Assembly (NCBI GenBank): GCA_015680685.1
Contig: MNCI01002227.1
Span: 501,223 to 565,222, forward strand
DNA from: Gnetum montanum
Taxonomy: Eukaryota; Plantae; Gnetophyta
Direction: 5' to 3'
DNA length: 64,000 bases
Below the pieces are notes generated by a model. The model saw only the letters and a program-made list of their open reading frames with translations, had not been told where the DNA came from and did not search any database. Position numbers and translations under genes: made by a program. How positions within the stretch are numbered: the first letter of the stretch is position 1; every line of letters starts with the position of its first letter. This document shows, piece by piece, positions 24,300 to 49,978 of this stretch.

Positions 24300-25740
24300 G
24301 TCAACACCATTTTCAGGTTCCCAACTTTTCACATGTTTGAACTTTGGCATTTTCAACACTCTTGGTAGTTCGAATTTTTGACACATTACAGCACTTTGGC
24401 ACTTTGCAACCTTTCATAGCAATTCCACTTCCACAACCAACAAAGCCCATTACAACCTCACCTTGTAGTGTTTTTTGGTAATAGAAACTGGTACTATGCT
24501 AGGCACAAACACTTCCACATAGCTTCCATTACTCCAAAATTATAGTACCAATCCCATTCTCATGTTGCAGATCCTAGTGAAAAATTGATGAAAAGTTGTT
24601 GAAAATCAGAGCGAGGAAGAAATTGGATCATGAAGTTGTAGTAGGATGTTCTGCAAGCAACTTCTTATGCTTTTGGCACAAAACCTATACTTCATGAACC
24701 TTCATTCTTTATTTTTTATAAATTTTATTGTTCAAGTTATGCAAGTTTTAGTTTACATTTCCATTTCTGCACTTGTTTTCATTTCAGGCCTACAATAATA
24801 ATACTATTTCCATTTCTATTTCTAAAGCCATTTATGTTTTCATTTGGTCATTTTTGTTTATGTTTATTTTTTCATTTCTATTTTCATCTACAATTATGTT
24901 TACATTTTCATAGCCATTTCCATTTATGTTCCATAAGTCCTTGGATGATCAACAAGACCATACAAGGCATCCTAAGTCCTGTTTTTCAAAGGCCCTTGGG
25001 ATTCAGGGTTAAAACTATTCTAGAATCTTTTAGTTTTTCCATTTCAACAACTAATATTTTCATCACCAATAGTTTTCTAGTGCTAGAAGGAGGGCCTCTG
25101 CCTAAATTCTTGGCCATAAACCCATTTTAGCCATTTATGTCCTTCCATCATTCCATAATACTAATGTTGGCTATCATATCTTCTTTCACAAGCCTTGGTG
25201 TAGTAGCGGTAATAGAGTTGGATTTTGCTACAAATTTCCTGTCTACTGCAACATTCATTTCATTCAACACCATTCTTTCCAATGTTATTCCATCTAACAT
25301 CGTTCCTACTATGAAACTTGTTTTCGTCCAATAGGTAAACTACTTTTTCTTTTTCTTGTTTTCACTGTTTAGTAGTAGTTTTCTACTGCCTTTCTATTTT
25401 TTGATCAATTATGTTAGTAGACTATCCTACCTAGTACTTTTTAAACCAAAAATAGTAAAAAATCTAAAGACTCCATTTTCAACATGTTGTTTCAACAATC
25501 AACCAAGCTGCCCTTTGATTTCACCAACGGTGGATCTAATCACCAAGCTATAAGGATATATGATCCTAAAGACCCCACCATGATTGAATGTAGATTTTCC
25601 TTGAGACTTAGGGGAAAAATTCCTAATTTCTTTATCATAAATGAAAAGCATTATAACTTCATTTATGCTAACATCTAGGTTGATATGCTGATTCTACAAA
25701 AAAATGTAGAAGCAAAGAGGGAATTTGAGCTCATACACCA
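24300..25740 (+). mobile_element. Tat-type copy B, 5' part (LTR end, PBS, start of gag), cut by insertion of copy C
   Basis: PBS TAGTGCTAGAAGGAGGG at 25078-25094. IRIYDPKDPTMIECRFSLRLRGK is homologous to the gag start of copy A. The sequence resumes at 45901. The LTR start was not determined. Confidence 0.75.
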
Positions 25741-27158
25741 TGAAACACCACAAAATTCTGAGCTCAGTACTTCTCCAACAAAAATCAAGCTAACTCATGA
25801 TGCTCCCTAGCATGACTAAAGCTTGAGGGTCCCACAGACAGCTTCAAGCAGAGTCAAACTCAACAAGAAGCAGTTCCCTGGGACTCGCAAACGACCACGG
25901 CGACATCTGGTATCAAACATGGCAACTTCGGAGCTCAAGATACTTAGTTCTCACTAAGTATACATTCCCAGCGTATACGCCCAGCATATGCTCCCAGCGT
26001 ATATGCCCAGCGTACACGCCTCACATGTACGCTTAGCATATATGACTGATGTGTGCGCCTGACATGCAACTCCCAAAGATGGCATGGAAACAACACTTCA
26101 GAGCAATATTTTGTACAAAGCATCAACTCACGCGAACAGAGCAATCATCAGGTGTCATCATGGGCTCCAGAAAGTCAAATTTTGGTCTCGACATCATGCA
26201 TTTTGGAGTTCATACGCTGAGCATGTACATTCTGCATGCCCAGCATGTATGCCCCGCATGTACGCCCCACGTATACACCCAGCATGTACAAAGTGTATGA
26301 CCAGTATGTAGCACAATGTATACCAATCAAAGCTCTCCTGTACCGTGTCAAATCAAGGTTAACCAAGCTGAACATCTATAGGCAGCATCCTCATGGCATC
26401 CGAATTCAAATCTGAAGGTCAAACGACTTCTTTTGTTTTGATCAAGTCTGTACACCGAGGTCATATGTCCAGCGTGTATACGCTGGCGTGCAGCACGTTG
26501 TACACTTGTAAAATTTCATTCTTTCGCACTCGGTCAATGCACCACATGTCACCCGACCCGAGTCTAAACTTGTATAAAAACCCCAATTTTTCATTAGATC
26601 GGGGTGGGCAATTTTGAGCAAACTAGAGACAAAAAAAAGGAACCAGAGACGCTGAGAAACCAGAGAGCAAAGCAAAAACCCTGTACGCTGGACCTTAACC
26701 CTGCACACTGAGCATACAGCTTTCACGCTGTGCCTGCAGTTTAAACTAGTACACAATCATCCCTACGCATCCACTGGGGCTCTTCGTCCGCCTTGTGTCA
26801 GATTCACAACTGCGTTAGACCAGTGCATTGTAACTTTCAGTTTCATAATAATATTATCACATCTGTTTTGCTAAGATTTGACAGTTTTTCGTTCATTATT
26901 TCATGCTTATTACTTACGTTCCTGTACATTTATGCTCCATTTTACATTAGTTACGTTGTTTACGTATAACCCAGCATATAGTATATCGGTGTACGTTCGG
27001 GGAAATCCTTGCCTGATCTACGTGCGAACCACTCAAGGTACTCTACCTTCGTTAATTCGAGCTTGCCCTCAAGTGAAGGTAGGATCTTCTGTGCGTGTCC
27101 AGGGATCTCCAGGTTTCTGTTTCATTCCAGCCGGAGACCGACGATTTCGGACAGTACA
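25741..27158 (+). repeat. 5' LTR of copy C
   Basis: TGAAACACCAC...GACAGTACA; matches 44443-45895. I count 8 differences in the first ~230 bp, all transitions. Confidence 0.95.
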
Positions 27159-27164
27159 GAAAAA

Positions 27165-27181
27165 TGACGCTAGAAGGAGGG
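27165..27181 (+). promoter_or_regulatory. PBS complementary to plant tRNA-Asn(GUU) 3' end
   Basis: TGACGCTAGAAGGAGGG, 6 nt after the LTR. It has one mismatch to the complement of ...CCCUCCUUCUAGCGCCA (tRNA sequence recalled from memory). Confidence 0.85.
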
Positions 27182-27299
27182 CCCGAAACTGCTTAAAACT
27201 TACTGTGCTCTCATACCCCGATCTTCCCAAACTCACACTGCATCGACACTAAACCCAGTTCTAAAATTCCCGGATCGGCATCCCGTTCTACAGAATTCC

Positions 27300-27790
27300 C
27301 AGCGTCTACGCTGCTGAGTATACGTTGTACGCTGTACGCTATAGACTTTGTCTATGCTGCTCAGTATACGCTATACGCTGTACGCTATAGACTCTGTCTA
27401 CGCTGCTCAGTATATGCTGTATGCTGGACGCTATAGACCCTGTCTACGCTGCTCAGTATACGTTGTACGCTGTATGCTGTAGACTTTGTCTACGCTGCTC
27501 AGTATATGCTGTATGCTGTAGACCCTGTCTACGCTGCTCAGTATACGTTGTACGCTGTACGCTGTAGACCCTGTCTATGCTGCTTAGTATACACTGTACG
27601 TTGTACATTGTAGACCCTGTCTACGCTGCTCAGTATACGCTGTACGCTGTAAGCTGTAGACCCTGTCTACACTGCTCAGTATACACTGTACGCTACTCTG
27701 CCTACACGTTTTAATGTATACCTGTATGCTGTCACTATACGTTGGTCGTTGAAGCCTATACGTTGAGATCCAGTCTATACGCTGTACGCA
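27300..27790 (+). repeat. 5' UTR tandem array, ~36-43 bp units (CTACGCTGCTCAGTATACGCTGTACGCTGTAGACCCTGT)
   Basis: About 9-10 units directly visible. Confidence 0.9.
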
Positions 27791-27867
27791 GCAAATGTAG
27801 GTTTACGTCGTACTAAGTATACTAGTTTCATATCCCTTCCACCGCATCATATTCACAACCATTCATC

Positions 27868-30800
27868 ATGAACACTGCAAACCCCAACGCTACAACCAAG
27901 CCAGTCACAGACATCGTGGGCACCGTGGCCGTTCAACAACCCATAGTACAACCCACAGTGGGGCCTCGTCGATCTCTCAGATTGCAAGGGAGGAACCCAT
28001 CGTTTAACATTATAACTCAGGAGCAATACAATTTCATATGCGTAAAATTACAAGCCAGCCTCGTCGTGGATCAAACCGAAATGGAGGTTAAAAGACAATA
28101 CGAACTCTTCCATAGGGAGGACATGAGTTCATCCCATCCCCGTACAATATTATCCCTCTCCTAGAGGACTACTTTTAGCTCATCTCACAACTCCTCCTAC
28201 AAAGGAGTCAGTCTCTGGACCAGCCTGTGGCAAATCCTCAGTTGGAAGAAGAGGATGACTTCGTAGCTTAGTCCGAGCATGAAGATTCGTACCACACCCT
28301 CAGCCCACGAACCTATGTAAACCTGTTGTTTCAAATCACCCAAGCACAAATACCTCAACAGGACTCATCCACGCTTATCCATATCCCTCTTGTAACCGAT
28401 GCGCAACTCAACACAGTTCCCCTTGCCATTCCCCCCATTGCAACAGTATCTCCATTCTCGTAAATACAACCTCCTCAAAATAATGTAGGAGTAACCTTCC
28501 CACCTAGAGTGATCGGGATGCCGCATGTGATACCGGCTTCTACATTCGCTCATTATATCCCATGGATCCAAACCCAAGGAGCCCCTTTTACAACTGTAAC
28601 TCAACAAGTTCAGAGTGCCCCCACACAAAGCATGACTGGCTAATGGGCAGCGATTGGTGCTCAACCATATCAACTCCCTCACTATAACATACCACCTCAC
28701 ACAATTTTACCAGCTAGCATCCCTCAAGGACAACCACAACAACAACAGCAACCCCTTGCCTACAATGTACCGCCCCTAGTACCACCCACCACAAATATTC
28801 CGCAAGCGCAGCCTCCAACCACACAACTTTCTTTCTTCCAGCCCACTGCCCAACAATCTAACCTGTATACTGTACAACATCCTCAACCTACTATCTCACC
28901 TAGTTCCCAAGACTGGGCTGATGCTAAAAAGCTAATGTAGGAGCTAACTGACGAGGTCAAATGCCTCAAGACAACCACCGACGGAGAGCTCAAGGTAGTG
29001 GACTTCTATCACGATGACCCTATCAGCTCTTCGGTTCCGCCTCTAACACTTCCCAAGGGTGTATCCTTACCCACACTGACTAAATACAACGAGGAGATAG
29101 ACCCCAACGCTCATCTCATAACGTTTAGACTAGAATACGCACTACTTCAGGCATGGCCACATGCCATTCTGCGAGTGTTCCCCATGTCCCTCGTAGGGAG
29201 AGCACTTGATTGGTATCGGGCCTTGCCATGAAACTCAATATCTTCTCTAGAGGATTTGTTGTACCAATTCGTTACCAGGTTCAAGTATAACTTGAAACCT
29301 GAAGCAACACTTGATAGCCTCATATAGGTCAAACAAGCACCTCTTGAACCTATCCAAAAATTCATCCAACAGTGGAGTGTTGCCCTCAATGAGCTCCACG
29401 AGCAGATCCCGGAGACGTATCTCCTCACCATCCTAAAAGGAGCTGTCAATGATTTTTTCAAATCCATACTATATTATCTCAATGCACATACTCTCAGTCA
29501 AGTGTTTGTACAGATCAAGAACATAGAGGAGGCAGCCCAAAACAGCCACGATCCTGCATATTCAGCCTTTAAGAATCAACATAGTAAGAAAGATAAAGAA
29601 AAGGTTAAAACAACTATAGCGGAAGTAGCGGAAACACCACAAGCGAATGTGGGATAACAAAGCAAACCCCCTATTTCCCCTACTAATTACGCTAAACCTG
29701 CTCCTGCGATGGCACCTAAATCATCCGCATCACAAAACCCAACACTGGGTCGTACGAGAAACTTCGAGAGGAAGGACCCCTCTCAATACATGCCATTGCC
29801 CATGAATCCATCGCAACTATTCGACCAACTCTTGAAAGTCAAACTGATGAAACATAAACAGTTGTCCCCTGCAGCGATCCAAAGACATGATCGGTTCTGT
29901 CAACTGGTTTAGAACCCAAGCCTGGCAACACCAGATGAGCCCCCGGTTCCAAAAGGCTTTTGAATGGATCGTTTTTGTGATTATCATCAACATAATGGGC
30001 ATGGCACTGACTATTGTTTCACCTTAAAACAAGATATCCAACGGATGATTGATGGAGGTCAAATCACTTTTGATGAAGCCAATCCGGTCCAACCACAAAA
30101 CTAGGCCATGGGTGTATATAAAGATCCTCTAAATACTAAAGAAGCACCGTATGTAATTAACACCATCTACTTCGATAATGAACCGGAAACACCTAGGATT
30201 AACACTGTCCATTCTAATCATGAGCAGAAAATGCCTAAGAAACCATTTTTAGTGCATATTCCTCCCACTGTACAAACACCTATGCCTCAACCATCATACT
30301 TCCCACAGAAACCTTATGTCATTCGAGTACCCCCCACCGTAGCAACTTCTATCACACCACTAAGTGAAAGACCATACGTGGTGTGCATACCTCCCGCCAC
30401 TGCAAGCACACAACCATCTCCTACTCGGCCTGCTCCCTACGTAGTCTGAGTGTCACCCGCGGTCGCAACTGCGAAGGTACAACCTCCAGCTAGGCCAACT
30501 CCATACGTCGTTAGGACACTCGAACGTCCTGATGACCACCAATCCTCCACTTCGCAAACACAAAATAAACCGATCCCCTATGTCATCAAGATGCCTAGCC
30601 AGCCTGACACTCAACTGCATGCCACTGTCCAACCACAACCCCGCCCTACTCCATATGTTGTACAGGTTCCAAAGCAACCTGAGGTTTGGAAACCAACTGT
30701 ACCCCCACGCCACACATGAGAACGCCTGGTAGACAGGCTTACACGGGAACGCTTGAAGAAGGAACGTCAACAATTGGCCTTAGGACCTCCCAAGCCTACC

Positions 30801-32033
30801 CTGCTAAATGCAATACCCATGACATCGCCTAACAATAAACCAAACACAGGCTATGAGGGTGAATCATCCAAAAAACATGATACGCCTAAATCAACGATTC
30901 CGGGTAAAAATGAAAAACCAACTATGCATGAAATAAAACTGTTGGGCCCGATGGACCAAATCACTATCGACAAACATACGTCCAACAGTAGAGATCTAGC
31001 GACAGCTCTAACTCAAGTCACACAGGCACTTAAACAAAAAAACACTTCATTGAGCTTATACGACCTAGTGTTAACATCTCAAACCCATTGCGAAGCCCTA
31101 GTGCGCATGTTGACTTCCATCCCAGTAAGCGAAGACTTACCTCCAAATGAACCTTCAATTCATGCGGTAGTGTACTCGCCTCAAGGGTCAACTCCTAAGC
31201 CATTAGGTTTCCACAATGACAACATCAAAGTGGATGAGAAAACGGAAGAGGTAATAGCCGCACCTATGTTCATAACGATACGAATAAATCAATTTAAGAT
31301 ACATAGAGTGCATGTAGATGATGGAGCCGCTACAAACATAGTGTCATATCCCATCGTTGAACAATTGGGGCTCACGGAGCTAATAAGACCAACCACCACC
31401 ACGTGTTTGAAGTCGTTTAGTGGATCACGCGTAATAGTCAAAGGCACCATGACTTTAGACTTTATAGCAGGGGATCAATTCCCCACATCTGTCGACTTTG
31501 TGGTCATCAATGAAATGCCAGGGTTCAATTTAATATTGGGAAGGCCCTGGTTAGCCCAACTGAAAGCAGTCTCTTCCCCCATACACCAAGAGATTCACCT
31601 GCCTTATGAAAGTGGCGAAATCATTATACACGGGGAGGCTGCTACACCTACCATCTCATCGTATACAGATACAGACCAAGGCTCAGAGGTTAAGCTCGAA
31701 GAGCCTAAACAAGATGATACAAATGAACAACAAAGATGTACGTAACCAGTAGGTGATAATCTTTTAGACACAAAGGAAAATTTACCCAACACAGAAATAC
31801 TCGGGCCTGAAATCGTACATATACAGCCTCACTTAGAAACTACAACTAACACAGAAACCACAATACATGTAGAAGCGCCAAAAAGCACCAACGCGGGAAC
31901 TATTCCATCAGACATCCCTTGGGCTGAATTACCATTTAACGTGATCAGCGAAGGAGACGCTAAATATAGAATCATACCCGTTAACGCTACTCCTAATGTT
32001 AAAATGAGAAAAATCAAAAAATTGCTAAATTAA
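27868..32033 (+). pseudogene. gag-protease of copy C
   Basis: ATG at 27868, Pro/Gln-rich N-terminus, capsid LTKYNEEIDPNAHL..FPMSLVGRALDWY, Zn finger FCDYHQHNGHGTDYC (~29970-30017), PYVVxVP repeats, PR VHVDDGAATNI..LILGRPWL, tail PWAELPFNV, TAA at 32031-32033. Several internal stops. Confidence 0.9.
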
Positions 32034-32592
32034 TAAACGACATTCAAGTCCGGAACGACGTTAAACTATCATGTCTGCAACGACATAAAACTAGTCATGA
32101 TCAGAAATGGTTGGTCTACCAAGAAATCCACCCATGTCACTTGAAACTTCCCTCGTTTATGCATGGCTCGAAATGGCCTTAAACTAGTGCATGTGGCCTG
32201 AAATGGCCTTAAATTAGACCATCTACCTACACTTTCTTTTTCTCGAAAATTCCAGTTCATTGTTTGAATTTACGCTTGCATTGTCGTGTTATCAATAACA
32301 GTCTTTGCAATTATCCTTCGCTTATAATTATATTCCTACTTACATTCCCACTTCGTGCATTACACTTAAACTACAAAACAAACCAAAACATTTTACATTG
32401 TCGTGTCATGTTTACATTTAAACTTAAAATCCACAACAAAAAAAATACGTAGAAATATATATATACATGTAGTGATATACAGTTAGACAAGTACAACAGT
32501 TAACTGATTATATTCATCCGTGCAATACAACTCAAAACATTCAATTTACGATTCACATAAAAATATGAGCCAGGGTAATTTCAAAGTCAAAA

Positions 32593-35500
32593 TTAAACAT
32601 CAGGGACGGGAGGATTGTTCCCTCCAGGCCCATCAGCACCATGAGTCCCCACTCCGGTAGGGCTACCTTCTTGGACATCGTCGTCACCTTGACCCTACAA
32701 AACGTAAAAGAAACAATCAACACAAGAACAAAAAAAGAAAAATCCCAAACATTACTCAACGAAAAAATTTCATGGCAACAAAATGCTTACCGTAGGGAAC
32801 CCCCCTAAACCGAATTCTAGTCGACGGAGAATTTCCTCCTCTGAGACGCTAGCCCAGTCAGTCCCATCAAGGCCTATATCGACATTCGCCAAGGCTTTCC
32901 CCTTGTCAATCACCGACCATGTAGGACGTTTCAAGGGGAATTCACCCACAGAGATCTCCCCAGAAGCGGTCGTAATTACCCTCATGGGCGATTCCATCTC
33001 AACAGTTGTATTCTTAGCAAAGGTATCAAACGCAGAACGTAGACCCAGACCCTCTACGAACATTTCAAGCTGGCGCTTTTCTATGGATACTTCCTTCAAT
33101 GATTTCTTGTAATGATGCTTGTGGTTCTTCTCATCCTGACCCCACTTATGCACCTTGGAAGCCAAAGCCTTCCAATCCTAGCACTTAAGATTCAGTAGAT
33201 CTATCTGGGCCTTACGCTCTGCTAGTTTCTGAGTCAGTGATGCATGGTGATTTAGCAGGTTCCAATATCTAGTATAAGTGATCTCGGAAGTTCGCCAAGA
33301 ACGATCACTTGTTAGTCTAGCTGAGGCAAACTCATATCGAGCCTTGAGATCATCACGTTCAATTGATAACTCGGAAACCTCTTTTTCATTTGCCTGGATT
33401 TGCAACCATAGTTGTTCAATGGAATGCCTACAGGTCCAAAGCAATTTGGCGTTATGCACAAGACCTTCTGCCACCTCGTCATAGACCGGCCTTGGTATCT
33501 GTTCAACTTCTGGCAGTAGTGCAAGCAAACTTTCAATACTAACAGTTTCAGATGGATCCCACTTCAACTTGGCTCCTACACACATGAAAAGAACAGACAT
33601 TAAATCTTAGATGGCAAAAAAGGAGTATGAAACTCGAAGGCTACAAAATGCTCAAGATATTTATACCTATTTCAGGGTGGGCTTGTTGAATACGTTCAAC
33701 CAACTCATCAACGATACTAGTCATGAAATCCATTTTACTTGGCATCTCGGTCCAAGTAAATGGTTCATGAGTACAAGATGGACTAGCCTCCATGGTCGTT
33801 TTAGGGGGAGCCACTTTCATGGGCACTTCCAACTGCATTGTGGGAATCGTCCTAGTTTCAATATCTTTGTCTGGAAGCGATAAAAACGTAAAATTAAAAC
33901 ATCACGTGATGGAAACAACAATTCACAAAGCAACGCAATAAAACGAAAAGGAATATACCGCTTTCTCTGTCCCCTTCCCAGTTTGGAGGATCACCAAGGT
34001 CTAATCTTCCCTTAAGGAAGCTATTGAACATTTCATCAACACCATCCCGGTCATCGATCAATTCTGTCTCCGTGGTGTCTTTCGCCAGCTCTTCTGTCCC
34101 TTCCACCTGATCTTTGCCGACCTCTTCCTCCTCAATTATTAAGTCTGTTGGAACTTCCTCCTCCTCGATAATGGTTTCTAGCTCCTGTCTCCTCACTTCC
34201 CAAGTCAAGTCTGAAGACATTAGTTTCATGTAAGCGGTCAAAACAAAAAAAATAAATAAGCTGGAAATGACAATACAATAAGTGCACCAAGCTTACTTAC
34301 CTCGAACAGGCATTTTGAATCGTATTCGCTTCACGCTTGGCTCTTCCATAGTTGAGGCCACCTCTTTAGGGCATTCGCGCTTCAGAATCTTCAATTTAGC
34401 TTTCCCGATGGTCTCCTTGATGACCCGTTTAGCTCTCTTTGCAGTGTAGTGCACATTGTTTGGTTCCAACCCCACACTGTCACGTGTATGGATTGAAGTA
34501 CTAGATGACCCCTCTGTCGTGATGGATATAGATTCATCAATCCCCTCGGGTGCATATTGGGACTCAGCTATCTCGAACAAATGGTTAATCCATGGGCGAG
34601 ATAATTGAGTATGATCCTGTAGAACATATTTATTATTCGCACGAACCACTAAAAACTCGGCCAAGCGACGTAGGTAACCTGCGAAGAATGCGAATGTAAA
34701 ATGGGATTGTGCCTCAATGTTTGAACACAATCGCACTATCTCCCTATGGAAACCCAACAACAAAAATTAGGCCCAATTATAACGCATCCTGGTTTCTAAA
34801 ATGGTTCGCATGATGCGCACGACTTCCACCCCAAGACTCTTCACTTGGGACAGGGATTTAGGAAACACCAGTGCCCTAAACAGGGGATACAATTCATTAA
34901 CTTCCACCACCTTTAACGTCCCTTGCATAGGGAATCCCTTAGAGCCCTTGACAATGCCCAACCAATCTTCTAGCTCACGCACCACATGGAGCTCTTTCTG
35001 CGCCCTGTCTAAAACCACATTCATGCCATCTTCCAGTACACCGAAGAGGTCTGAAAAGAACTCGGCTGACAGATGGAAAACTATTTTGACACCCTTAATA
35101 CGGGTGCTGTAGTAGGTGATAGAGTTGTCGAACGAATCAACAATTCCAATCATTTCAACTATAGAGACATCAGGGCTCAGGGTTGTAAATAACTCCATGA
35201 GGCCGGCGTCATCCAAACAACGGACAATAGATGGTGGGGCACTAGTACGCAACCATCGATGTGCCTTGCTGATCTCCCCAAACTTCATCAACAGGGTACT
35301 CTCAATTCGCCCTGTCGTAACAGGATCTCCACCGGGGGGACATTAACTGTAAACACAATTTAAAACCATAACACCAGTATGACCAACGTTGCAGCCAAAC
35401 AAACATACTAAAGCATCTAGGAAATATCATCACTTACCTTCAGTTGTGGGCTACGAGGTGCTAGAGCCCAAGTCAGCATCACGAGGGAAAATTGGTCCAT

Positions 35501-37006
35501 TGCGTGACCAATCTCCATGCAGCCACCCACGAGCCATGCATTGTGCAAATGCCCTGGAAAACCATTTATGGAAATGAACAATGTCACCCTTGGTCTGAGC
35601 TAATATAGCTCCGCGGAGCGTGGGACCCACCATGAAGGTCTTTAAAGCGGTATGAGCCAGTGCAAGCCCATCATCATTGATGCATATCCAATCTTTATCA
35701 ACCTGGGGCCTGCAAAAGAACAGTCATCAAAACAGGAGCAAACACAAAATGACAAAATAGAAACGACAAACTAAACGACCTTACCTCTCTACCCTGTACA
35801 CCGTGCCTGGAGGGTTCTGAAATAATGTGTGTGCACGCGCAGCTAGAAACAAGGTGTTATTGAGATAGTGAGGCCCACGTGGCAATAAGTACCACACGCG
35901 CGATAATGGACGAGTAGATCTGGGCCCTCCAGAGGGACCTTCCTCATTCGCAAGAGGTCCCTCGTAAATGTCCACCATGAAAACCATGACATCATCCAAA
36001 GATCCTGGAAACATTGCTTCGAGCATGCTCTGCGCCACTTATTCGCTTCGGTGTGACCATATCACTACCTTGAATCTGTCTAGGATGAAAGCAAGGAATT
36101 CACAGGCCCCTTCCCTGAACCATACCCCATTGTTATCAATAGTCAAATCAGGGGCAGGTTCATCAGTATCAAGGGGCCCGAACCATGCTAGTACCCCAAC
36201 CAACTTAACCACCAGGAGGAAAGGCTCAGGATCCCTGCAAATAACCAGAATCCCATGATAAGTCAACTATACACCAAAATGAAATAGAGAAATGAAATTC
36301 CACGTTGAAAGCCAATACTTCGAAAAAATCAAAAAAACTGTTTACACTCGGCGTACACCCTATCAAAAGATTGTTTACACTCGGCATACACGCTATCAAA
36401 AGACTGTTTACACTCGGCGTACACGCTATCCAAAGATTGTTTACACTCGACGTACACGCTATCAAAACACTATTTACACTCGGTATACACGCTATCAAAA
36501 GATTGTTTACACTCGGCGTACACACTGCAAAAACTGTCTATGCCCAGAGTACAGATCCTGTAAGCTGCGAAAACTATTTACGCCCAGCGTACAGATCCTG
36601 TACGTTGCGAAAACTTTTTACGCTCAACGTGCAGACTCTGCATGCTACCAAAATTGTTTACGCCCAACCTGCAGACCCTGTACACTGCGAAGCCCGTTTA
36701 CACTCAACATACAGATTTTGCACGCTGTAAAAACTATCCACGCTCAGCGTACAGACCCTGTACGCTACCAAAACTGTCTACGCTTAGCGTACAGACCCTG
36801 TATGTTGCCAAAATTATCTACGCCAAATAATAAGTACAAATAAAAAAAATTAACTGAGGTAAGATTAGAGCCTACCTGTGTGTCGATCTAGGCCACGATG
36901 GAATCCTAGGCCTAGGCAAACACTGTAGTATGGCCTCACTTTCCTCCACGAAAGTCAAGTTGGGCCCCTTCCTCCCTTGGCCTTCTACCTCCTTACCCTT
37001 GCCCAT
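32593..37006 (-). pseudogene. Antisense 8-exon accessory gene of copy C (~1080 aa: FCP1/NIF-like pseudo-phosphatase, PMD/plant-transposon-like domain, acidic region, coiled coil)
   Basis: Exons: 37006-36876, 36234-35785, 35709-35438, 35346-34301, 34210-33959, 33870-33667, 33575-32791, 32694-32593. All introns are GT-AG with phases 2,2,1,1,1,1,0 that join in frame. One 1-nt loss in a C-run at ~35335 and a few internal stops. Confidence 0.88.
36330..36830. repeat. Tandem arrays (33-bp then ~40-bp units) inside intron 1 of the antisense gene
   Basis: AAAGATTGTTTACACTCGGCGTACACGCTATCA x~6, then AAAACTGTCTACGCCCAGCGTACAGACCCTGTACGCT-like x~7. Confidence 0.9.
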
Positions 37007-37124: not shown

Positions 37125-38648
37125 TGTACTGTCCAAAATCGTCGATCTCCGGCTGAAATGAAACAGAAATCTAGAGATCTCTGGACACGCACAGAAGACC
37201 CTACCTTCACTTGAGGGCAAGCTGGAATTAACGAAGGTAGAGTACCTTGAGTGGTCCGCACGCGAATCAGGCAAGGATTTTCCCGAACATACACCAATAT
37301 ACTGTATGCTGAGTTATACGTAAATGGCGTATAAGCGTAACTAATGTAAAACGGAGCATAAACGTACAGGAGCGTAAGCAGTAACATACAATAATGAATG
37401 AAAGACTGTAACAAATTTTAGCAAAGAAATGTAACAATATTATTGTGAAATGAAAGTTACAATGCATCGGTCTAACGTAGTTGTGGCTCTAGCACAAGGC
37501 GGATGAATAGCCCTGGTGGATGCAGGGGTGATTTTGTGTTGGGTTTAACTGCAGGCACAGCATAAAGGCTGTATGCTTAGCGTGTAGGGTCAAGGTCCAA
37601 TGTATAGGGTTTTTTCTTTGTTTTTCTTAGCGTCTCTGGTTCTCTTTTTTTTTCTCTAGTTTGCTCAAAATTGCCCCCCGGTCTAGTGAAAATTGGGGGT
37701 TTTATACAAGTGTAAACGTGGGACTCGGGTTTTGAGAGGGGATGATTAGCTATGGAGCGCTGGATTCTCGGGTCAGGTGACATGTGGCGAGTTGACCGGG
37801 TGCGAAAAAATGAAATTTTACAAGTATCAAGCGTGTTGCACGCCAGCGTATGCACGTTATACGCCAGGGTATACAGCTGTACGCCAGCGTATACACGCTA
37901 GACATATGACCCTGGCGTACAGACTTGATCGAAACAAAAGAGGTCATTCGGCCCTCAAATTTGACTTTGGATGCCATGAGAATGCTGCCTGTGGATGTTC
38001 AACTTGGTTGACCTTGATCTGACACGGTGTTGGAGAATTTTGATTATACATTATGCATGTTGGGCATATACGCCGAGCGTACACACTGGGCGTACACGTT
38101 GTTTATCTTGGACGTATACGCTGTGAATGCATGCTGGGCGTATACGCTATATCTGCTGAGCATATACGCTAAGCGTGGAGGATGTACATGCTCAACGTAT
38201 GGACTCCACAATGCATGATGTCAACACTTGATGATTGCTCTGTTCGTGTGAGTTGATAATTTGTACAAAATCTTCCTCTGCAATGCAGTTTCCATACCAT
38301 CTTTGGAAGTTGCATACTGGGCGTATACATCAATCACACATGCTAAGTGTACATGTGAGGTTGTATACACTGGGCGTATACGCTGTATCTGCTGGGCATA
38401 TACGCTGGGCGTATACGCTGAGAATGTATACTTAGTGAAGACTAAGTATCTTGATCTCCGAAGTTGCCATGTTTGATACCAGATGTCGCTGTGGTCGTCT
38501 GCGGGTCCCAGGGAACTGTTTCTTATTGTGTTCGACTTCGCTTGAAGCTGTCTGTGGGGCCCTCAAGCTTTAGTCATGCTAGGGAACATCATGACTTAGC
38601 TCGATTTTTGTTGGAGAAGCACTAAGCTCAGAATTTTGTGGTGTTTCA
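37125..38648 (-). mobile_element. Solo LTR of the C/D family nested in copy C, reverse orientation
   Basis: Reverse complement of TGAAACACCAC...GACAGTACA. TSD CCGGG (37120-37124) / CCAGG (38649-38653). It splits a ~29-bp GGGGTTTGCTGCTTTACGCT array (37030-37124 and 38649-38850). Confidence 0.92.
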
Positions 38649-38877
38649 CCAGGGTTTGAGCCTCCACGCTCACACTGGGGTTTGAGCCTCTACGCTCATG
38701 CTTATGCCGGGGTTTGCTGCTTTACGCTCACGTTGGGGTTTGAGCCTCTACGCTTACGTTGACGCTAAGGTTTGCTACTCTATGCTCACGCTAGGGTCTT
38801 GTTCTCTACGCTTACGCTGCAGCTTAGGTATACGCTCACGCTGCAACTTATGTTTATTTTATCTTTGAAACTAATAG

Positions 38878-38930
38878 GTTCACGCTCACGCCCGCCACCC
38901 TATATATAGCATCGAGTTGACCCCGCCGCC
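38878..38930 (-). promoter_or_regulatory. Putative internal promoter of the antisense gene (copy C)
   Basis: Minus strand GGCGGCGGGGTCAAC-N7-TATATATA..GAGCGTGAACC. The same block and spacing occur in copy D (56431-56480) amid diverged flanks. Confidence 0.6.
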
Positions 38931-39360
38931 ATCGTCGCCGCCTTTCATTTTTTATTAATATTTTATTAATTTTAGTTAGAAATTGTTCAAAATACAAAGT
39001 ACGGGGAAAATGCAGAAGAAAATGATGAGATAATAAACACTACCACATATCATATTCCCTGGTAAGCCAATTTCGATTTCCCGCACTAAACATTTTGGCG
39101 CAAACTCTTCCGTACAGATCATACAGCAACTAGGCATCATCAAATCACACGTACGGCTCGGTAAGGCCTTAAACTGCCACATACGGCCTGGTAAGGCCTT
39201 AAACCGCCACATACGGCCCGATAAGGCCTTAAACTGCTATGCGTCCCAGTACAATGATAAACCACCATCGTACATGTACACATGATTTACGTTGCCAAGG
39301 AACGCGTAATAACACCTACTAGCTCACTCTGCCCTCTATTTATTGGCAGGAGCAAGCCCA

Positions 39361-42300
39361 ATGGATTATTAGTATTTATCCACACCATTGACCATCGATG
39401 GACCATACAGAAAGATTACAAGAGAAATCGACATAAATTTCATCAACTTAGGGTTATCAACGGACGACACAATCATAACCTCAACACAACAAACGCTAGA
39501 CAGCTACAAAGGTATGACAAAGTCCCTCGACATAGAAGCTGATAGCATCACCGAAGACTCGTTGACTGAAACTCCCATCGCTATGCCTGATGGTGAAATC
39601 AAGATATTAAAATTGAGTACATTATTGCAACCTCAATTGGCCAAAGACATAGAATATGTGCTTCAAGACAACATAAAAGCATTCCCTTGGTCTTACACTA
39701 ATATGCCCGGGTTAGATCCTCGAATCGTCCAGCACAATATTATACTCGATCCAAAGTTAAGGCCAATGAAACAAAAATCATGAAAGGTTAAGCCTGAGGT
39801 AGCATTAGCAGTTCGCAATGAGATCACCAAACTCTATCAGGCAGGTTTCATTCGGGCTGTAGACTACGTTGATTGGGTATCCAACATGGTCATTGTCCCG
39901 AAGAAGAATGGAAGCATTCGCCTATGCATTGACATCCAGGACCTCAATGTTGCGACCATAAAAGATGATTTCCCCCTACCCAGCATCGATCAACTTGTTG
40001 ACTCAACCGCTGAGCACGCCTTGCTATCTTTTATGGATGGCTTCTCAGGATATAACCAGATACGCATTAACCCAGAGCATCAGCTCCAGACTACCTTTAT
40101 GACACCATGGGGTACCTTTTGTTACACAATGATGCCCTTCAGTTTTAAGAATGCTGGGGCCACATATCAAAGGGCAATGAAATTTATTTTTAGCGATTAT
40201 ATGCTACATTCGCTCAATGATTATGTAGATGATATTGCAATTAAATCGAAAACACTAGAACAACACATCCAAGATTTAGATTTGATCTTAAAACGTTGCT
40301 TAAAATATGAACTTAGGCTCAATCTAAAGAAATGTGTTTTAGAAGTAAAAACGGGCACGATGCTAGGCTTCATAGTGTCAGAAACAGGAATACGGGTGGA
40401 CCTAGATAAAGTTAAAGCTGTTATCAATTTAAAACCACCAAGCAATATTACCGAACTTCGGGGTCTACAAGGTAGATTACAGTTCATCAGGCGCTTCATA
40501 GAAAAATTGACGGACAAGTTGAAGCCCATGAATCATTTACTACGAAAGAATGCCCATTTCGAATGGACTCCACAATGCCAAGAAGCTTTCAACCACATTA
40601 AGATAGCACTAGCTCAGTTACCAATAGTGTACCCTCCAAAGAACAATAAACCTTTCTACATTTATCTTACCACGTTGGATTCGTCCATCGCTTCAATGCT
40701 CTGCCAGAAACGAGACGATGGGACCGAAGTCCCTGTTTATTATTTGAGCCATGCATTAGTGGCCCACGAAAAGAAGTACAATGAGGTGGAGAAGTCATGT
40801 TTAGCCCTTTTCTTTTCCCTAAAGAAATGGCGAAATTACCTCTTCCATAACCAAGCCAACATAATCTGCAAAGATAATGTGCTTAGGGCCATCACCAGTA
40901 ATATTTATGAGTCAAGCAGAATAGAGCGTTGGAAAGCCATAATAGCCGAATTCGAGCTACATTATATAGCGTAGTCATCAGTCAAGGGTCAAGCCATAGC
41001 GAATCAACTAACTACATCACCAATACACGATCAAGCAACAGTAGAGCCAGAGTTTCCAGACGAAAACATAAGCGCGATAAACATAGTTCCCGATGAGTAT
41101 GAAGCTATTTTGAACTTTGATGGAGCATTCACCTCTCAAGGGGGGAGTGCTGCTGCCGTCATCACCTATCCCTCTGGGGAGATCTGACCCTTTGCTTACC
41201 GCTTCAACTTTCATTGTACCAACAACATAGCAGAATACGAAGGTCTCCTTAGGGGCCTTACGACAGCATTAACTTCCAACATCACACGACTCGTGGTCAA
41301 GGGAGACTCACAACTAGTTTTAAACTAAGTCACAGATGTTTATACATGCAAAGCACAACATTTACAGCCATACTGTGACTTAGCTAAACATTTACTAAAG
41401 CGATTCGAAAACATGGATGTGCAACATGTCTCCAGAAATGATAACACCATTGCAGACGCACTTGCCACGCTAGCTCTAAACATATCACCTGATATGTTCC
41501 ATATGTTTCCAAGCTCTATAATCAGTTGTGCTAAACCCATAACTGATACTCTCGATGAATTACCAATTGCATCCGTTAGTACAACATACGCAATAGAATG
41601 GTATGACGACATAAAAGAGTACCTTCTACGTGGTGAAACACCGCAACATTTAACGAATGCACAAAAGGACGCAGTACGAAAACGTTCTTGACAATATGCA
41701 TTGGTTGGGGACACATTGTGTCATCGATCCTATGAAGATGTATTGCTAACGTGCGTTAGTAGCGTTGATGCCCAAAACATCGTCGAGCAAGTACATGATG
41801 GACTATGCGGAGGACACATAGCACCTAAAGCAATGGCGACGAAAATAAGACGTTTAGGCTATTATTGGCCACACATGGAGTATGACTGTCTCTCTAAGGC
41901 TAAAACGTGCAGTGTCTATCAAAAACATAGTAATCTGATACATGTTTCACCAAATGAGTTGCATACAGCGCAAATCACCTGGCCCTTTCAAAAGTGAGGG
42001 TTGGACCTTATCGGACCAATAACACCCTCATCTTCTGTAGGGCATAGCTTCATCATAATCGCTACAGAGTATTTCACGAAGTGGGTAGAAGCTGTTCCCC
42101 TTAGAGAAACCACATCCAAACACATATGCAACTTCATCCTTGAAAACATTGTGACTCGTTTTGGCATCCCCATGACCATCATCACTGATAATGGACCACA
42201 ATTTAGCAGTGCTGAAACCAGAACTTTCTGTGAAAGCCTAGGGATCAAACACTCATTTTCATCCCCTTATTACCCTCAGAGCAATGGGCAAGCTGAGGCC

Positions 42301-42837
42301 ACAAATAAAACCATCATTACAGTACTTAAAAAGATGCTTACCCAAAACTTAAAAAGATGGCATGAACAGCTAGTATACGCGCTGTGGGCTTATCGCACTA
42401 TGCATCGGACTTCCACAGGTAAAACACCATATAGTCTTATTTATGTTTCAAAAGCTGTTTTACCCTTGGAATTACAGGTACCATCCTTAAGGATCACACT
42501 TTCCGGACTCCTCGACGAAGGGCAAAACAATGACCTACGCATTATTGACTTGGACTCGATGGAGGAGGAACGCATACGTGCACTCGATAAGATTGAATGG
42601 TATCAAAAACAACAATGACAACGCCATCGGCACGATGTTCATAAGCACCCTATCAAGGAAGGCGACCTTATGCTCAAAGCCATTCGGGAACACCCAGACA
42701 AATTCTCAGCCAACTGGGAAGGGCCCTACTTGGTCACCAAAGTGTATGACAACGAAGCATTCAAATTAGTTGACATGGAAGGGAATGACCTTGTAAATCT
42801 GACCAATCACTTGTTCTTGAAACCGTTCCATGTTTGA
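39361..42837 (+). pseudogene. pol: Stand-alone pol of copy C: RT - RNase H - additional (archaeal-type) RNase H - integrase; no protease
   Basis: Single frame of 1159 codons with ~8 point stops and no frameshift. SFMDGFSGYNQI, YVDDI, LNFDGAF..CTNNIAEYEGL..VKGDSQLV..HVSRNDNTIADALA (aRH), H..GGH..C..(Y) Zn finger, WGLDLIGP-type core, ITDNGPQF, NGQAE, WEGPY. Confidence 0.95.
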
Positions 42838-42864
42838 CCATGGACTCAGGTACATTTTCATCCT

Positions 42865-43230
42865 GGCTTCATGACAGTCAACTAATACCACAACTCGTCC
42901 TAGCATCATGATGGTAAATTGATACCACAGCTCGTCCTGGCATCATGACGGTAAACTGATACCACAACTCATCCTAGCATCATGATGGTAAACTGATACC
43001 ATAGCTCGTCCTGGCATCATAACAGTAAACTGATACCACAGATCATCCTGGCATCATGACGGTAAACTGATACCATAGCTCGTCCTGGCATCATGACGGT
43101 AAACTGATACCACAACTTGTCCTGGCATCATGACGGTAAACTGATACCATAGCTCATCCTGACATCACGACAGTAAACTGATACCATAACTCGTCCTGGC
43201 ATCATGATGATAAACTAATACCATAGAATG
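42865..43230 (+). repeat. 37-bp tandem array after integrase (ATCATGACGGTAAACTGATACCACAGCTCGTCCTGGC) x~10, decaying to ~43450
   Basis: Directly visible. Only ~3 units in copy D (52420-52525). Confidence 0.92.
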
Positions 43231-44442: not shown

Positions 44443-45895
44443 TGAAACACCACAAAATTCTAAGCTTAGTACTTCTCCAACAAAAATCGAGCTAACTCAT
44501 GATGCTCCCTAGCATGACTAAAGCTTGAGGGCCCCACAGACAGCTTCAAGCAGAGTCAAACTCAACAAGAAGCAGTTCCCTGGGACCCGCAGATGACCAC
44601 AGCGACATCTGGTATCAAACATGGCAACTTCGGAGCTCAAGATACTTAGTTCTCACTAAGTATACATTCCCAGCGTATATGCCCAGCATACTTTCCCAGC
44701 GTACACGCCTCACATGTACGCTCAGCATGTATGACTGACGTGTGCGCCCGGCATGCAACCCCCGAAGATGGCATGGAAACAGCACTTCAGAGCAAGATTT
44801 TATACAAAGCATCAACTCATGCGAACAGAGCAATCATCAGGTGTCATCATGGGCTCCAGAAAGTCGAATTTTGGTCTCAACATCATGCATTTTGGAGTTC
44901 ATACGCTGAGCATGTACATCCTGCATGCCCAGCGTGTATGCCCAGCGTGTCCACCCAGCATGTATGGCCCGCGTATACGCCCGACATATACGCCCAGCAT
45001 GTACAAAGTGTACGACTGGTATGTAGCACAATGTATACCAATCAAAGCTCTCCTGCACCATGTCAGATCAAGGTTAACCAAGCTGAACATCTACAGGCAA
45101 CATCTTCATGGCATCCGAATTCAAATCTGAAGGTCGAACGACTTCTTTTGTTTTGATCAAGTTTGTACGTGGAGGTCATACGTCCAGCGTGTATATGCTA
45201 GCATACAACGTGTATACGCTAGCGTGCAGCATGCTATACACTTGTAAAATTTCATTCTTTTGCACTCGGTCAACCCGCCACATGTCACCCGACCCAAGTC
45301 TAAACTTGTATAAAACCCCCAATTTTTCACTAGATCGGGGTGGGCAATTTTGAGCAAACCAGAGACAAAAAAAGGAACCAGAGACGCCGAGAAACCAGAG
45401 AGCAAAGCAAAAACCCTGTATGCTGGACCTTAACCCTACATGCTGAGCATACAGCCTTCATGCTGTGCTTGTAGTTTAAACCAATACACAATCGTCCCTG
45501 CGCATCCACTGGGGCTCTTCATCCTCCTTGTGTCAGATTCACAACTGCGTTAGACCGGTGTATTGTAACTTTCAGTTTCACAATAATATTATCACATCTA
45601 TTTTGCTAAGATTTGTTATAGTTTTTTGTTCATTATTGCATGCTTATTACTTACGTTCATGTACGTTTACGCTTCGTTTTACATTAGTTACGTCGTTTAC
45701 GTATAACCCAGCGTACAGTATATCGGTGTACGTTCGGGGAAATCCTTGCCTGATCCACGTGTGGACCACTCAAGGTACTCTACCTTCATTAATTCCAGCT
45801 TGCCCTCAAGCGAAGGTAGGGTCTTCTATGCATGTCCAGGGATCTCCAGGTTTCTGTTTCATTCCAGTTGGAGATCGACGATTTCGAATAGTACA
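44443..45895 (+). repeat. 3' LTR of copy C
   Basis: TGAAACACCAC...AATAGTACA followed by TSD CACCA. Confidence 0.95.
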
Positions 45896-45900
45896 CACCA

Positions 45901-48900: not shown

Positions 48901-49207
48901 TCCTTATGAGGGAGGTGAAATCATTATTCATAGTGATAGTGCAGCCCCTTTAGCTGTTAACAACATTAATGTAGAACAAGGGTCCAAAGTGGAGTTTCAA
49001 GAAGAAACTCCTACTATTTGCCATAAAATCAAAGGAAGTGATATAGCAAAAGAGGCTAAAGTAAATAACGATAAACCCATTGATGAGCTATGGGGAGAGC
49101 TCCCATTCAATGTTGTTAGTAAAGAAGATGGAGAATATAAATTGGTGCAAAATAGACCATACACATTTCCCAATCTCTCAAAGATTAGGAAACACCTGCA
49201 TAGGTGA
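45901..49207 (+). pseudogene. gag-protease of copy B (continuation after the C insertion); B is cut again at 49978 by copy D
   Basis: FTKYNDKSDLNAHL..FPMSLIGKSLD, FCHYHQFPGHDT, LSLYDLV, VHVDDGLVTNI, LWGELPFNVV. Confidence 0.88.
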
Positions 49208-49978
49208 TATATGCTCCTAATCCTTCTTACACCTTATGCAGTCATAACCCTATAACTATATGTACTTATAGCCTAATAGCTTAGTTTATACTTAATTTTT
49301 TTTTTGTTACCTTGTTTTCCTTTATGTTGAATTCTTTATTTACCTATAACTTAAACTTTATCTTTGTTTTACATCCTTTTACTTTTGAAGCCTTTTTCTT
49401 TTTACTCAAAAAAGCCAAAAACAACATAAAAATTTTAAAACTGAAAACTCCATAAAAATTTATAAAACACAAAATAACCAAAAAAATATACATTTTCTTT
49501 TATGTATTATATGACCTACCATGGCCTTAAATTGGCAAATACTACATGGCCCACCATGGCCTTACACTAGCAAATACCGCATGGCCCACCATGGCCTAAA
49601 ACTAGCAAAAAACTTTGTATCTCATTTTTTACTTTAGTTTACAACTTTGTTTTATAACTATTTTAACCTTCTATTGCATGGAAACCAAGTTTAGCCAACA
49701 TAGCCTTTAGATATAAATTACAACATAGAGCTGTAACATAAACAAAACCATAATGCTAGAACATTATAAGCAGAATTAAAACTAAAATTTAAAATTAAAA
49801 TTAAAATGTCCATAGCATCATGACCATAGCGACATAACATGGCAAAAATGTCCAACTAAAGAATGTTTAAATAATAAACTATTTTGGCTAATACTATTCA
49901 TACATCATCATCAGCATGAAAATGAAATAGCTGAAACTGAGAGGTAATTGATGGAACTAAGTAGTATCTATAAGAGGG

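Follow-up and report, generated by a model that had tools for sequence, protein, structure and literature searches.

An eight-exon antisense gene under purifying selection inside a Tat-type retrotransposon of Gnetum montanum

How can an element that is copied through RNA keep a gene with seven introns? The question is raised by a 64,000-nucleotide stretch of Gnetum montanum DNA (contig MNCI01002227.1, hereafter the window), in which a retrotransposon that we call C carries eight exons on its minus strand, between gag-protease and RT-RH-aRH-INT. Plant LTR elements are generally intron-free, save for the sense-strand cases Ogre and EVADE (excerpt of PMC12786077). Retroelements are expected to lose introns, yet the family represented by copies C, D and A retains a multi-intron gene down to 31% protein identity and under selection at the level of RT. 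Our overall reading, which we hold with good confidence, is that of a Tat family with a selected, spliced eight-exon antisense gene, whose introns likely survive copying and whose product has a phosphatase fold that is predicted to be dead and is possibly self-regulatory.

Element C spans 20.2 kb (25741-45895). Its LTRs (25741-27158 and 44443-45895, both plus strand) are bounded by TG...CA and are 88.8% identical, with 6.6% transitions and 0.7% transversions over 1404 sites, and the 5-bp target duplication CACCA is found at both outer flanks. The primer-binding site (27165-27183, plus) directly adjoins the 5' LTR. In Ogre, 89% have a tRNA-Arg primer site, whereas that of C presumably resembles tRNA-Asn more. 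A related primer site at 25078 is part of the element into which C inserted. The 5' leader holds a 46-bp tandem array rich in ACGCT/AGCGT (27304-27694, plus) and is followed by a degenerate gag-protease recognised by translation (27826-32030, plus; the start is approximate and the frame ends in stops), with aspartic protease Pfam matches within 30720-31742. On the far side of the antisense gene, an inverted solo LTR of a related subfamily (37125-38648, minus; 76.9% identical to C's LTR, flanks CCGGG/CCAGG) has inserted 118 bp upstream of the gene's ATG; D is without it. A spacer with ACGCT repeats (38649-39349), likely the promoter region, separates the gene head to head from a degenerate pol (39361-42837, plus) with Pfam matches to RVT_1, RT_RNaseH, RVT_3 and rve, and a polypurine tract lies just before the 3' LTR.

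The LTRs, primer site, polypurine tract, target duplication and order PR-RT-RH-INT are those of Ty3/gypsy. The RVT_3 match (E 2.5e-7, 41329-41688) is an additional RNase H between RNase H and integrase, and an aRH in pol is the criterion of the Tat clade (excerpt of PMC6317226). This aRH position and the separation of gag-protease from RT correspond to the Ogre-type layout; an aRH between RH and INT is also found in ferns, hornworts, lycophytes and some gymnosperms (PMC13468544, in the part at hand). The RT of C and D is at most 49% identical to any match. In a quick RT tree (73 of 123 rows, references without lineage labels), the two form a long branch at an open fork with proteins of Ginkgo, Taxus, Cryptomeria and Victoria (SH-aLRT 93).

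LTRs and a 5-bp target duplication enclose the element that houses the gene, and its copies have therefore spread by retrotransposition. Three copies within 64 kb could also stem from DNA duplication, in which case the introns would never have passed through an RNA intermediate. We find this hardly credible: C is flanked by a separate LTR pair and target duplication and sits within another element's leader, D lies in the opposite orientation in the spacer of that element, the flanks differ, and RNA reads reveal many diverged copies.

The gene of C is read on the minus strand. Exon 1 (36876-37006) begins with the ATG at 37006 and shows 73% identity and a dN/dS of 0.10 in comparison with D. Intron 1 (36235-36875) is enlarged by 33- and 40-bp tandem arrays with ACGCT. 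Exon 2 (35785-36234) encodes an FCP1/NIF-like (HAD) domain without the canonical catalytic aspartates. Exon 3 (35438-35709) joins in frame, as seen in the D comparison, and exon 4 (34301-35346) encodes an orphan domain of about 270 aa with a basic tail, kept in C, D and A. The acidic linker of exon 5 (33959-34210) is followed by exon 6 (33667-33870), joined in frame according to both D and A, by exon 7 (32791-33575) with a predicted coiled coil and a conserved C-terminal region, and by exon 8 (32593-32694) with the stop at 32595-32593. The seven introns measure 641, 75, 91, 90, 88, 91 and 96 bp and are all GT..AG, an exact match to the preliminary description. The protein of about 1080 aa that it proposed is likewise obtained from the joined exons, with four internal stops and a single 1-nt loss near 35336 in exon 4, present in C only. 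The six short introns have 64-71% AT and 44-56% T, the exons 46-56% AT. C, D and A each carry disrupting stops; the window's own copies are decayed.

The gene recurs in D on the plus strand (56866-61031) of the window, within a minus-strand element whose 3' LTR lies at 51173-49979 and whose 5' end is outside the window. Joined, its eight exons make up a single 3240-nt frame without a frameshift and with 8 internal stops. GT/AG is intact in 12 of 14 splice dinucleotides, the acceptors of introns 1 and 6 being AA. The spliced frame contains 9 stops including the terminal one; the other two frames have 65 and 90, and unspliced sequence has 56-80. In the old copy A (8854-12474, minus), the gene lies downstream of gag-protease (about 4886-7807, plus), and exons 2-7 were located (tblastn E 6e-40 and 4e-31). 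Splice sites in A were first chosen by eye and then checked for position and phase. Five acceptors (introns 1, 3, 4, 5 and 6) and five donors (GT in introns 2, 4, 5 and 6, GC in intron 3; donor 4 is weak) agree in peptide position and phase. The claim that splice sites recur in other copies therefore holds for D and, in A, for these sites; no position in A could be assigned to the acceptor of intron 2, to intron 7 or to exons 1 and 8. Position and orientation are the same in three subfamilies, with protein identities of 69% for D and 31-34% for A.

That introns diverge more than exons is clear for indels, of which the short introns have 9 in 531 nt and the exons 2 in 3239 nt between C and D (Fisher p about 1e-6); the exon indels keep the frame except for the 1-nt loss in C. 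For substitutions the difference is modest: identity is 49-69% in intron interiors and 65-78% in exons, and introns 3, 5, 6 and 7 overlap the exon range.

Between C and D, the antisense gene has a dN/dS of 0.13 (1059 codons; 95% bootstrap 0.11-0.16), next to 0.13 for RT, 0.12 for aRH, 0.14 for integrase and 0.28 for protease. If only transversions are counted, so that C>T decay has no influence, the ratio is 0.27. Shifted frames of the gene give 0.93 and 1.72, and identity at codon positions 1, 2 and 3 is 0.78, 0.86 and 0.56. One reverse-strand frame is also low at 0.25, which is the expected shadow of shared third positions; every reverse frame has at least 36 stops. The antisense gene is under purifying selection, with a constraint equal to that of RT. 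The suggestion that selection has retained it across subfamilies is supported by a ratio that is far from 1.

Expression was followed in raw reads of the same species, from runs including X1 (stranded), X2 and the oligo-dT runs X4, X5 and X6. A joint at 33574-33666 with the plus-strand ends CT..AC corresponds to intron 6 (33576-33666, 91 bp, minus) and is carried by 17 reads (3, 10 and 4 in X4, X5 and X6), from two samples of one study. Intron 6 is spliced in RNA of related copies. Intron 7 is probably spliced in related copies as well, with 8 loose read ends at its donor (32790) that match the start of exon 8 in 26 of 30 letters vs 4 of 30 for the intron. Thus the spliced antisense reads called for in the preliminary description were found; the joints listed comprise one of the seven junctions on C and none on D, and the two junctions it had named, 36876/36234 and 35785/35709, are not among them. 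The reads derive from other copies, only 0-3 per run having at least 99% identity.

Oligo-dT depth is 18-32 in two exon-7 bins vs 1-7 in bins toward the 5' exons, and exon 7 has the deepest coverage in two of the three runs. This gradient is the pattern of a polyadenylated minus-strand mRNA. In X2, where the strand is mixed over D's gene body, 64 reads on the gene's strand terminate in a stretch of A near 61255, some 225 nt beyond D's stop; these reads align over about 57 AT-rich bases only, and another transcript could be their source. Stranded X1 has an excess of antisense reads across the gene, yet gag-protease and the solo LTR show it too, and this bias is therefore not gene-specific. Antisense-biased reads over much of the element would suit a role of the antisense RNA itself, through double-stranded RNA and self-silencing, as discussed in PMC7264820. 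The codon-position constraint and the frame-keeping indels point instead to a protein, and the gene overlaps neither gag nor pol coding sequence; we regard a role of the RNA alone as very improbable.

We propose that the selected protein-coding gene is transcribed away from pol, starting from a dedicated promoter within the 0.8-kb spacer, and that its poly(A) site falls in the spacer that follows gag-protease. In full-length sense RNA, the introns would appear as CT..AC and the spliceosome would not remove them, so that every new copy would inherit them. It is likely that the introns persist because they are antisense to the genomic RNA, which follows from established splicing logic. Pol is probably reached via a sense-strand splice to an acceptor at 39349, where a branch point (39323-39327) and a YAG acceptor (39347-39349) are kept in D. 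This could reflect an Ogre-like intron that holds the entire antisense gene, or alternatively a separate pol mRNA. Near the end of gag-protease, no sense-strand donor is conserved across C, D, A and a further copy, E, and no such joint is listed. Strong sense-strand donors in the spacer number 2 in 7.7 kb, an apparent scarcity to which we attach no weight.

The most recognisable part of the product is exon 2. In C it matches Pfam PF03031 (NIF) with E 1.8e-4 and 21.6 bits, next to a cutoff of 21.8; D reaches 18.1 bits. The match to UBLCP1 3shq has E 0.064. In the ESM Atlas, all 30 of 30 matches of D's exon 2 are NIF (best 0.95, 210 of 256 features). The catalytic signature of NIF/FCP1 consists of DxDx(T/V) at the first strand and the motif-IV aspartates. 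Neither is kept: the first strand of C and D lacks Asp, and the FDD of UBLCP1 aligns to LAA. A DxDE lies 11 residues further on in C and D and is absent in A. The domain is predicted from these residues to be a phosphatase fold that is catalytically dead.

Exon 7 shows weak coiled-coil Pfam matches and a heptad score; 209 pattern matches among metagenome contigs yielded none that was confirmed. For exon 4, a search of 7994 candidates (607-2000 aa) gave no homologue at E<=0.01, and exon 4 of C, D and A has no Pfam match to PMD, Transposase_28 or a related domain. A plant-mobile-domain identity, considered at first, found no support, though a remote relationship to one of these domains is conceivable. 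A match among 1.84 billion representatives was an unrelated tandem-repeat protein. The Atlas returned oomycete, fungal and integrase SAM-like clusters with low shared-feature counts, which are leads only. A word search with exon 2 gave none among 1984 candidates. AlphaFold models from two-sequence alignments are poor (pLDDT 48 and 36, the latter for exon 4), and fold searches with them uninformative. No DNA-binding domain was recognised in the protein.

Where did the gene come from? The preliminary description spoke of a host-style gene, which is apt as regards the exon-intron structure and a single cellular domain, NIF. No host parent gene was found, however: the above searches returned no host homologue of exons 2, 4 or 7. 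This, together with a constraint equal to that of RT and one position kept across subfamilies that are 31% identical, argues against a host or DNA-transposon gene that entered the spacer a single time and has since been carried along with no gain for the retrotransposon. The NIF domain and the plant-type introns would be compatible with such a passenger, and the dS of 1.37, vs 0.42-0.79 for pol, may mean a separate history; we consider it improbable nonetheless.

A possible function is suggested by the ACGCT/AGCGT motif, of which the leader has 21 occurrences (3.0 expected), intron 1 has 12 (1.9 expected) and D's spacer has 11 (1.1 expected), next to 7 (4.0 expected) for gag-protease and 5 (3.4 expected) for pol. 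The region of D from exon 2 to exon 8 likewise holds more occurrences than expected (9 vs 2.6). The motif stands in different repeat units in C and D. A has no ACGCT motif, and its CG sites are decayed (observed/expected 0.14). The motif was picked after the fact, tandem copies inflate the count, and D is not independent of C. These arrays in non-coding parts lead us to suggest, tentatively, a self-regulatory or anti-silencing role. The protein might then act as a nuclear trans-factor: the dead NIF domain would bind a phosphoprotein, e.g. the RNA polymerase II tail, the coiled coil would oligomerise, and the orphan domain would recognise ACGCT(G) arrays in LTRs, leader, spacer and intron 1, in the manner of VANC in VANDAL transposons.

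It is similarly conceivable, if doubtful, that the selected gene works at some step of replication and not on chromatin, with the ACGCT arrays as host-factor sites. It could serve export of unspliced RNA, the gag-protease/pol splicing balance, particle assembly or integration targeting. The 5.8-kb spacer and the conserved sense acceptor imply that spliced and unspliced sense RNAs compete, a spliced product of C. elegans Cer1 exports unspliced RNA (excerpt of PMC12786077), and accessory functions of retroviral type have been proposed for antisense ORFs (PMC7264820). On the other hand, Pfam recognised no RNA-binding or chromodomain-like module in the protein, and motif arrays in non-coding DNA fit a DNA-binding regulator more simply. 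The most specific form of the regulatory reading, which we offer as speculation, is an undescribed Tat lineage in which an Ogre-type protease-RT intron serves as cargo bay for a seven-intron opposite-strand gene, its product being a dead CTD-phosphatase-like protein that would bind the ACGCT arrays of the element and, as a sequence-specific anti-silencer comparable to VANC, keep it transcribed.

Retention of opposite-strand introns has precedents. HTLV-1 HBZ is a spliced opposite-strand gene that keeps its intron through reverse transcription, and reverse-placed globin genes in retroviral vectors retain theirs. HBZ has one intron and an LTR promoter and the vectors are engineered constructs, whereas the present gene has seven natural introns and likely an internal promoter. 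A 2020 review called for a search for antisense and spliced transcripts (PMC7264820). Gene predictors may label such antisense genes as host genes in large plant genomes. With a recognisable domain and a candidate target motif, the function of plant antisense accessory genes becomes directly testable.

Ogre elements (Ty3/gypsy, Tat) share the 5-bp target duplication, reach 24 kb and frequently have extra ORFs; as in C, gag-protease and RT-RH-aRH-INT are split by a non-coding stretch (excerpt of PMC6317226), which in Ogre is a spliceable intron (PMC4408406). Their extra ORFs lie 5' or 3' of the polyprotein and often encode a plant mobile domain (same excerpt of PMC6317226), whereas the gene of C lies inside the protease-RT stretch and has seven introns and a NIF domain. 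An antisense accessory gene kept across a family is also known from the antisense ORFs of Retand, Grande (gene23), RIRE2, PvRetro13 and TatIII, which further share coiled-coil parts and nearby tandem arrays and, in Grande, an own promoter. Those ORFs lie 3' of pol, ahead of the 3' LTR, and encode Transposase_28, PMD or SMC-like domains, each being described as a single ORF; the gene of C and D stands between gag-protease (~32030) and RT (~39361). The word 'intron' does not occur in the main text of PMC11963269 or PMC4093653. In the VANC/VANDAL system of Arabidopsis, a short motif occurs in variable tandem repeats of introns, intergenic and terminal non-coding regions (PMC5735166, in the part consulted). 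The likeness is an element-encoded accessory gene with ACGCT-type arrays in non-coding regions; VANDALs are DNA transposons, and no sequence relationship to VANC was seen. To FCP1/SCP/UBLCP1 HAD phosphatases, the likeness extends over exon 2 by profile and language model, but in the retrotransposon this domain shares one protein with an orphan domain and a coiled coil. Seven introns, a protease-RT position and a NIF domain were not found for antisense accessory genes in the literature searched. We conclude that antisense accessory ORFs as such are known from Retand and Ogre, and that these three features may be what is new in the Gnetum element.

The antisense gene carried by element C, a Tat-type LTR element of the window, is real and under selection, and its transcript is spliced in vivo at least in part. 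It occupies 32593-37006 on the minus strand between gag-protease and RT. Its eight exons and seven introns, all GT..AG, agree exactly with the exon number and intron lengths of the preliminary description, and the single 1-nt loss reported there was confirmed; four internal stops are also present. In the related element D, the gene runs in a single frame without frameshift; it has 8 internal stops and retains 12 of its 14 splice dinucleotides. Of the eight D stops, six correspond in C to Trp or to codons beginning with cytosine, and one is shared by the two copies; this pattern fits decay after insertion driven by methylation. Recurrence of the splice sites was also claimed for element A (31-34% protein identity), where it holds for five acceptors and five donors at the same peptide positions and phases; these were chosen by eye and then checked, and the remaining A sites were not located. 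The proposal that introns diverge more than exons stands for indels between C and D (9 in 531 nt of the short introns vs 2 in 3239 nt of exons), but not cleanly for substitutions, as the identity of the short, T-rich introns (49-69%) overlaps the low end of the exon range (65-78%).

Self-comparison and translation show the window to consist of nested LTR retrotransposons. Element C, on the plus strand, spans 25741-45895, with LTRs at 25741-27158 and 44443-45895. Both LTRs begin with TG and terminate in CA, with 6.6% transitions and 0.7% transversions between them, and CACCA stands at both outer flanks. C also has its primer site and polypurine tract in the proper positions. It is very improbable that the copies arose by DNA duplication. 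Also on the plus strand, gag-protease ends at ~32030 and pol (RT, RNase H, additional RNase H, integrase) extends from ~39361 to 42837. Directly behind the integrase stop lies a 37-bp tandem array (42861-43226, 9.8 copies; in D 52409-52526, 3.2 copies). C inserted within the leader of the older element E (primer site 25078; gag-protease 46345-49201), whose parts around C and D lie at 25078-25740 and 45896-49978. E belongs to an A-like subfamily (66-70% to A) and is cut a second time in its protease-RT spacer by D, which lies on the minus strand and extends beyond the window edge. A is a far older copy at ~4-12.5 kb. Its own pol was not found in the window, and a distant gypsy RT and integrase (18194-20265, minus strand, 26-28% to C) occupies the expected place. 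The CG observed/expected ratio is 0.14 in A and E and 0.6-0.7 in C and D, with CG/CHG decay. Together with the Tat structure and the T-rich short introns, this decay points to a land plant as host. At 37125-38648, a sister subfamily has left an inverted solo LTR in C (flanks CCGGG/CCAGG). This solo LTR lies within a 26-bp ACGCT repeat array, 118 bp ahead of the ATG of the antisense gene, is missing from D and probably disrupts the promoter of that gene in C. Four related elements and one solo LTR are clustered or nested within the window. By eye, ~900-2200 resembles a decayed RT fragment of non-LTR type.

The suggestion of selection, to be checked by dN/dS free of C>T effects, is borne out. 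Computed without stop codons, dN/dS between C and D is 0.13 (bootstrap 0.11-0.16; 1059 codon pairs), the same level as RT (0.13), additional RNase H (0.12) and integrase (0.14), with protease at 0.28. The 0-fold/4-fold transversion ratio, which is insensitive to C>T decay, is 0.27 (0.19-0.38), and pN/pS is below 1 in all eight exons. Shifted frames give 0.93 and 1.72 and reverse frames 0.99, 0.25 and 1.72, the low value of 0.25 arising because third positions are shared. Comparisons with A suffer from saturation at synonymous sites; for exon 4, they give a transversion ratio of 0.30-0.36. Given this codon constraint, mere hitchhiking of the gene is unlikely, and a function of the RNA only is more doubtful still. 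Between C and D, the antisense-gene dS of 1.37 exceeds that of pol (0.42-0.79), and pS in the antisense exons (0.63) exceeds both pol (0.32-0.49) and intron interiors, which suggests module exchange between subfamilies or constrained introns.

Reads from five of eight same-species RNA runs were aligned to C and D at 80% likeness. A joint at 33574-33666 on C skips 91 bases with CT..AC ends, corresponding on the minus strand to GT-AG and exactly to intron 6. It is covered by 3, 10 and 4 reads in the oligo-dT runs X4, X5 and X6 (two samples, one study) and by none in the stranded run X1. Among the loose ends listed for X6, 8 reads stop aligning at the donor of intron 7, and the sequence past this point matches exon 8 at 26/30 and the intron at 4/30, the former being the best match within the window. 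The predicted spliced antisense reads are therefore seen for intron 6 (17 reads) and as ends at the intron-7 donor; the other five junctions are absent among those listed on C, at a depth of ~1-7, and none is among those listed on D. Reads at 99% identity to C are almost absent, so the expressed copies lie elsewhere in the genome. Oligo-dT depth is highest in exon 7 and declines toward the 5' exons. X1 is antisense-biased over the gene, gag-protease and LTR alike and is thus not gene-specific. On D, 64 reads of run X2 end in an A run near 61255 on the gene strand, ~225 nt beyond the stop, aligning over only ~57 AT-rich bases in a run that is strand-mixed across the gene body. A repeated short region directly behind the gag-protease stop (32165-32218; 61474-61790) has heavy oligo-dT coverage, with a depth of up to 45 on D, and is possibly the 3' end of the gag-protease mRNA or of a derived transcript.

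The gene is thus borne by the element, constrained in its codons and spliced at intron 6 in relatives. In sense genomic RNA, its introns would appear as CT..AC and, by established splicing logic, would be copied rather than removed. HBZ and reverse-oriented vector genes are precedents for this principle. Transcription would start from an internal promoter, directed away from pol, and a poly(A) site may lie within the spacer. A palindromic TATA-like CTATATATAG is found at 38899-38910 in the spacer between antisense gene and pol; it is only partly kept in D, where the GC-rich motif beside it is kept. Access to pol would be given by splicing: on the plus strand, a branch-point-like CTCAC and a YAG acceptor (39323-39349) precede the in-frame ATG at 39361 in both C and D. 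Neither the RNA reads on C and D nor sequence comparison revealed a matching sense donor or joint for acceptor 39349. A donor-like site near 38998 is common to C and D, so that pol may be expressed from a separate spliced mRNA and not as an Ogre-type fusion. ACGCT/AGCGT, a motif picked after the fact with counts inflated by tandem copies, is 3-10-fold above shuffled expectation in the LTRs, leader, intron 1 and spacer of C and D, carried by unrelated repeat units of 26-46 bp, and near expectation in gag, pol and C exons.

From its sequence, the exon 2 domain is NIF/FCP1-like. It scores 21.6 bits against Pfam PF03031 (cutoff 21.8), its best PDB sequence match is UBLCP1 (E 0.064), and NIF is found in 30 of 30 ESM Atlas matches (top score 0.95, 210/256 features). 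By the general definition of the NIF/FCP1 catalytic motif, the first strand lacks its aspartate, with FDD of UBLCP1 aligned to LAA, so that the product is likely a pseudo-phosphatase. A DxDE 11 residues downstream of this strand is present in C and D and missing from A. The exon 4 domain is kept in C, D and A, and sequence and profile searches found no homologue for it. Exons 5-6 encode an acidic linker and exon 7 a predicted coiled coil with a conserved tail. One possible role of the protein is in exporting RNA, balancing splicing or assembling particles, a rival of about equal weight to the self-regulatory reading given below.

The position of the additional RNase H places element C among the Tat elements; the same position is present in several non-flowering lineages (PMC13468544). 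The protease/RT split resembles Ogre as described in PMC6317226 and PMC4408406. RT identity is at most 49% to any of the 120 matches listed, and in a quick RT tree (73 of 123 rows: top 60 matches, named matches and window copies) the RT sits on a long branch of unresolved position next to proteins from gymnosperms and a water lily, which does not establish Ogre membership. Antisense extra ORFs 3' of pol are well known (PMC7264820, PMC11963269, PMC4093653). PMC6317226 considers unspliced ORFs outside the polyprotein region only and does not have NIF among its listed domains. We found no multi-intron antisense gene of a plant LTR element in the literature covered, which includes PMC6431247, PMC12477816 and PMC12786077 and excludes most subscription papers, e.g. 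Steinbauerova 2008 and 2011. An antisense accessory gene is known as such, and the seven introns, the protease-RT position and the pseudo-phosphatase domain are the features not found in this literature. As a tentative guess, the antisense protein might be a nuclear self-regulator following the logic of the VANC system (PMC5735166, PMC13317346).
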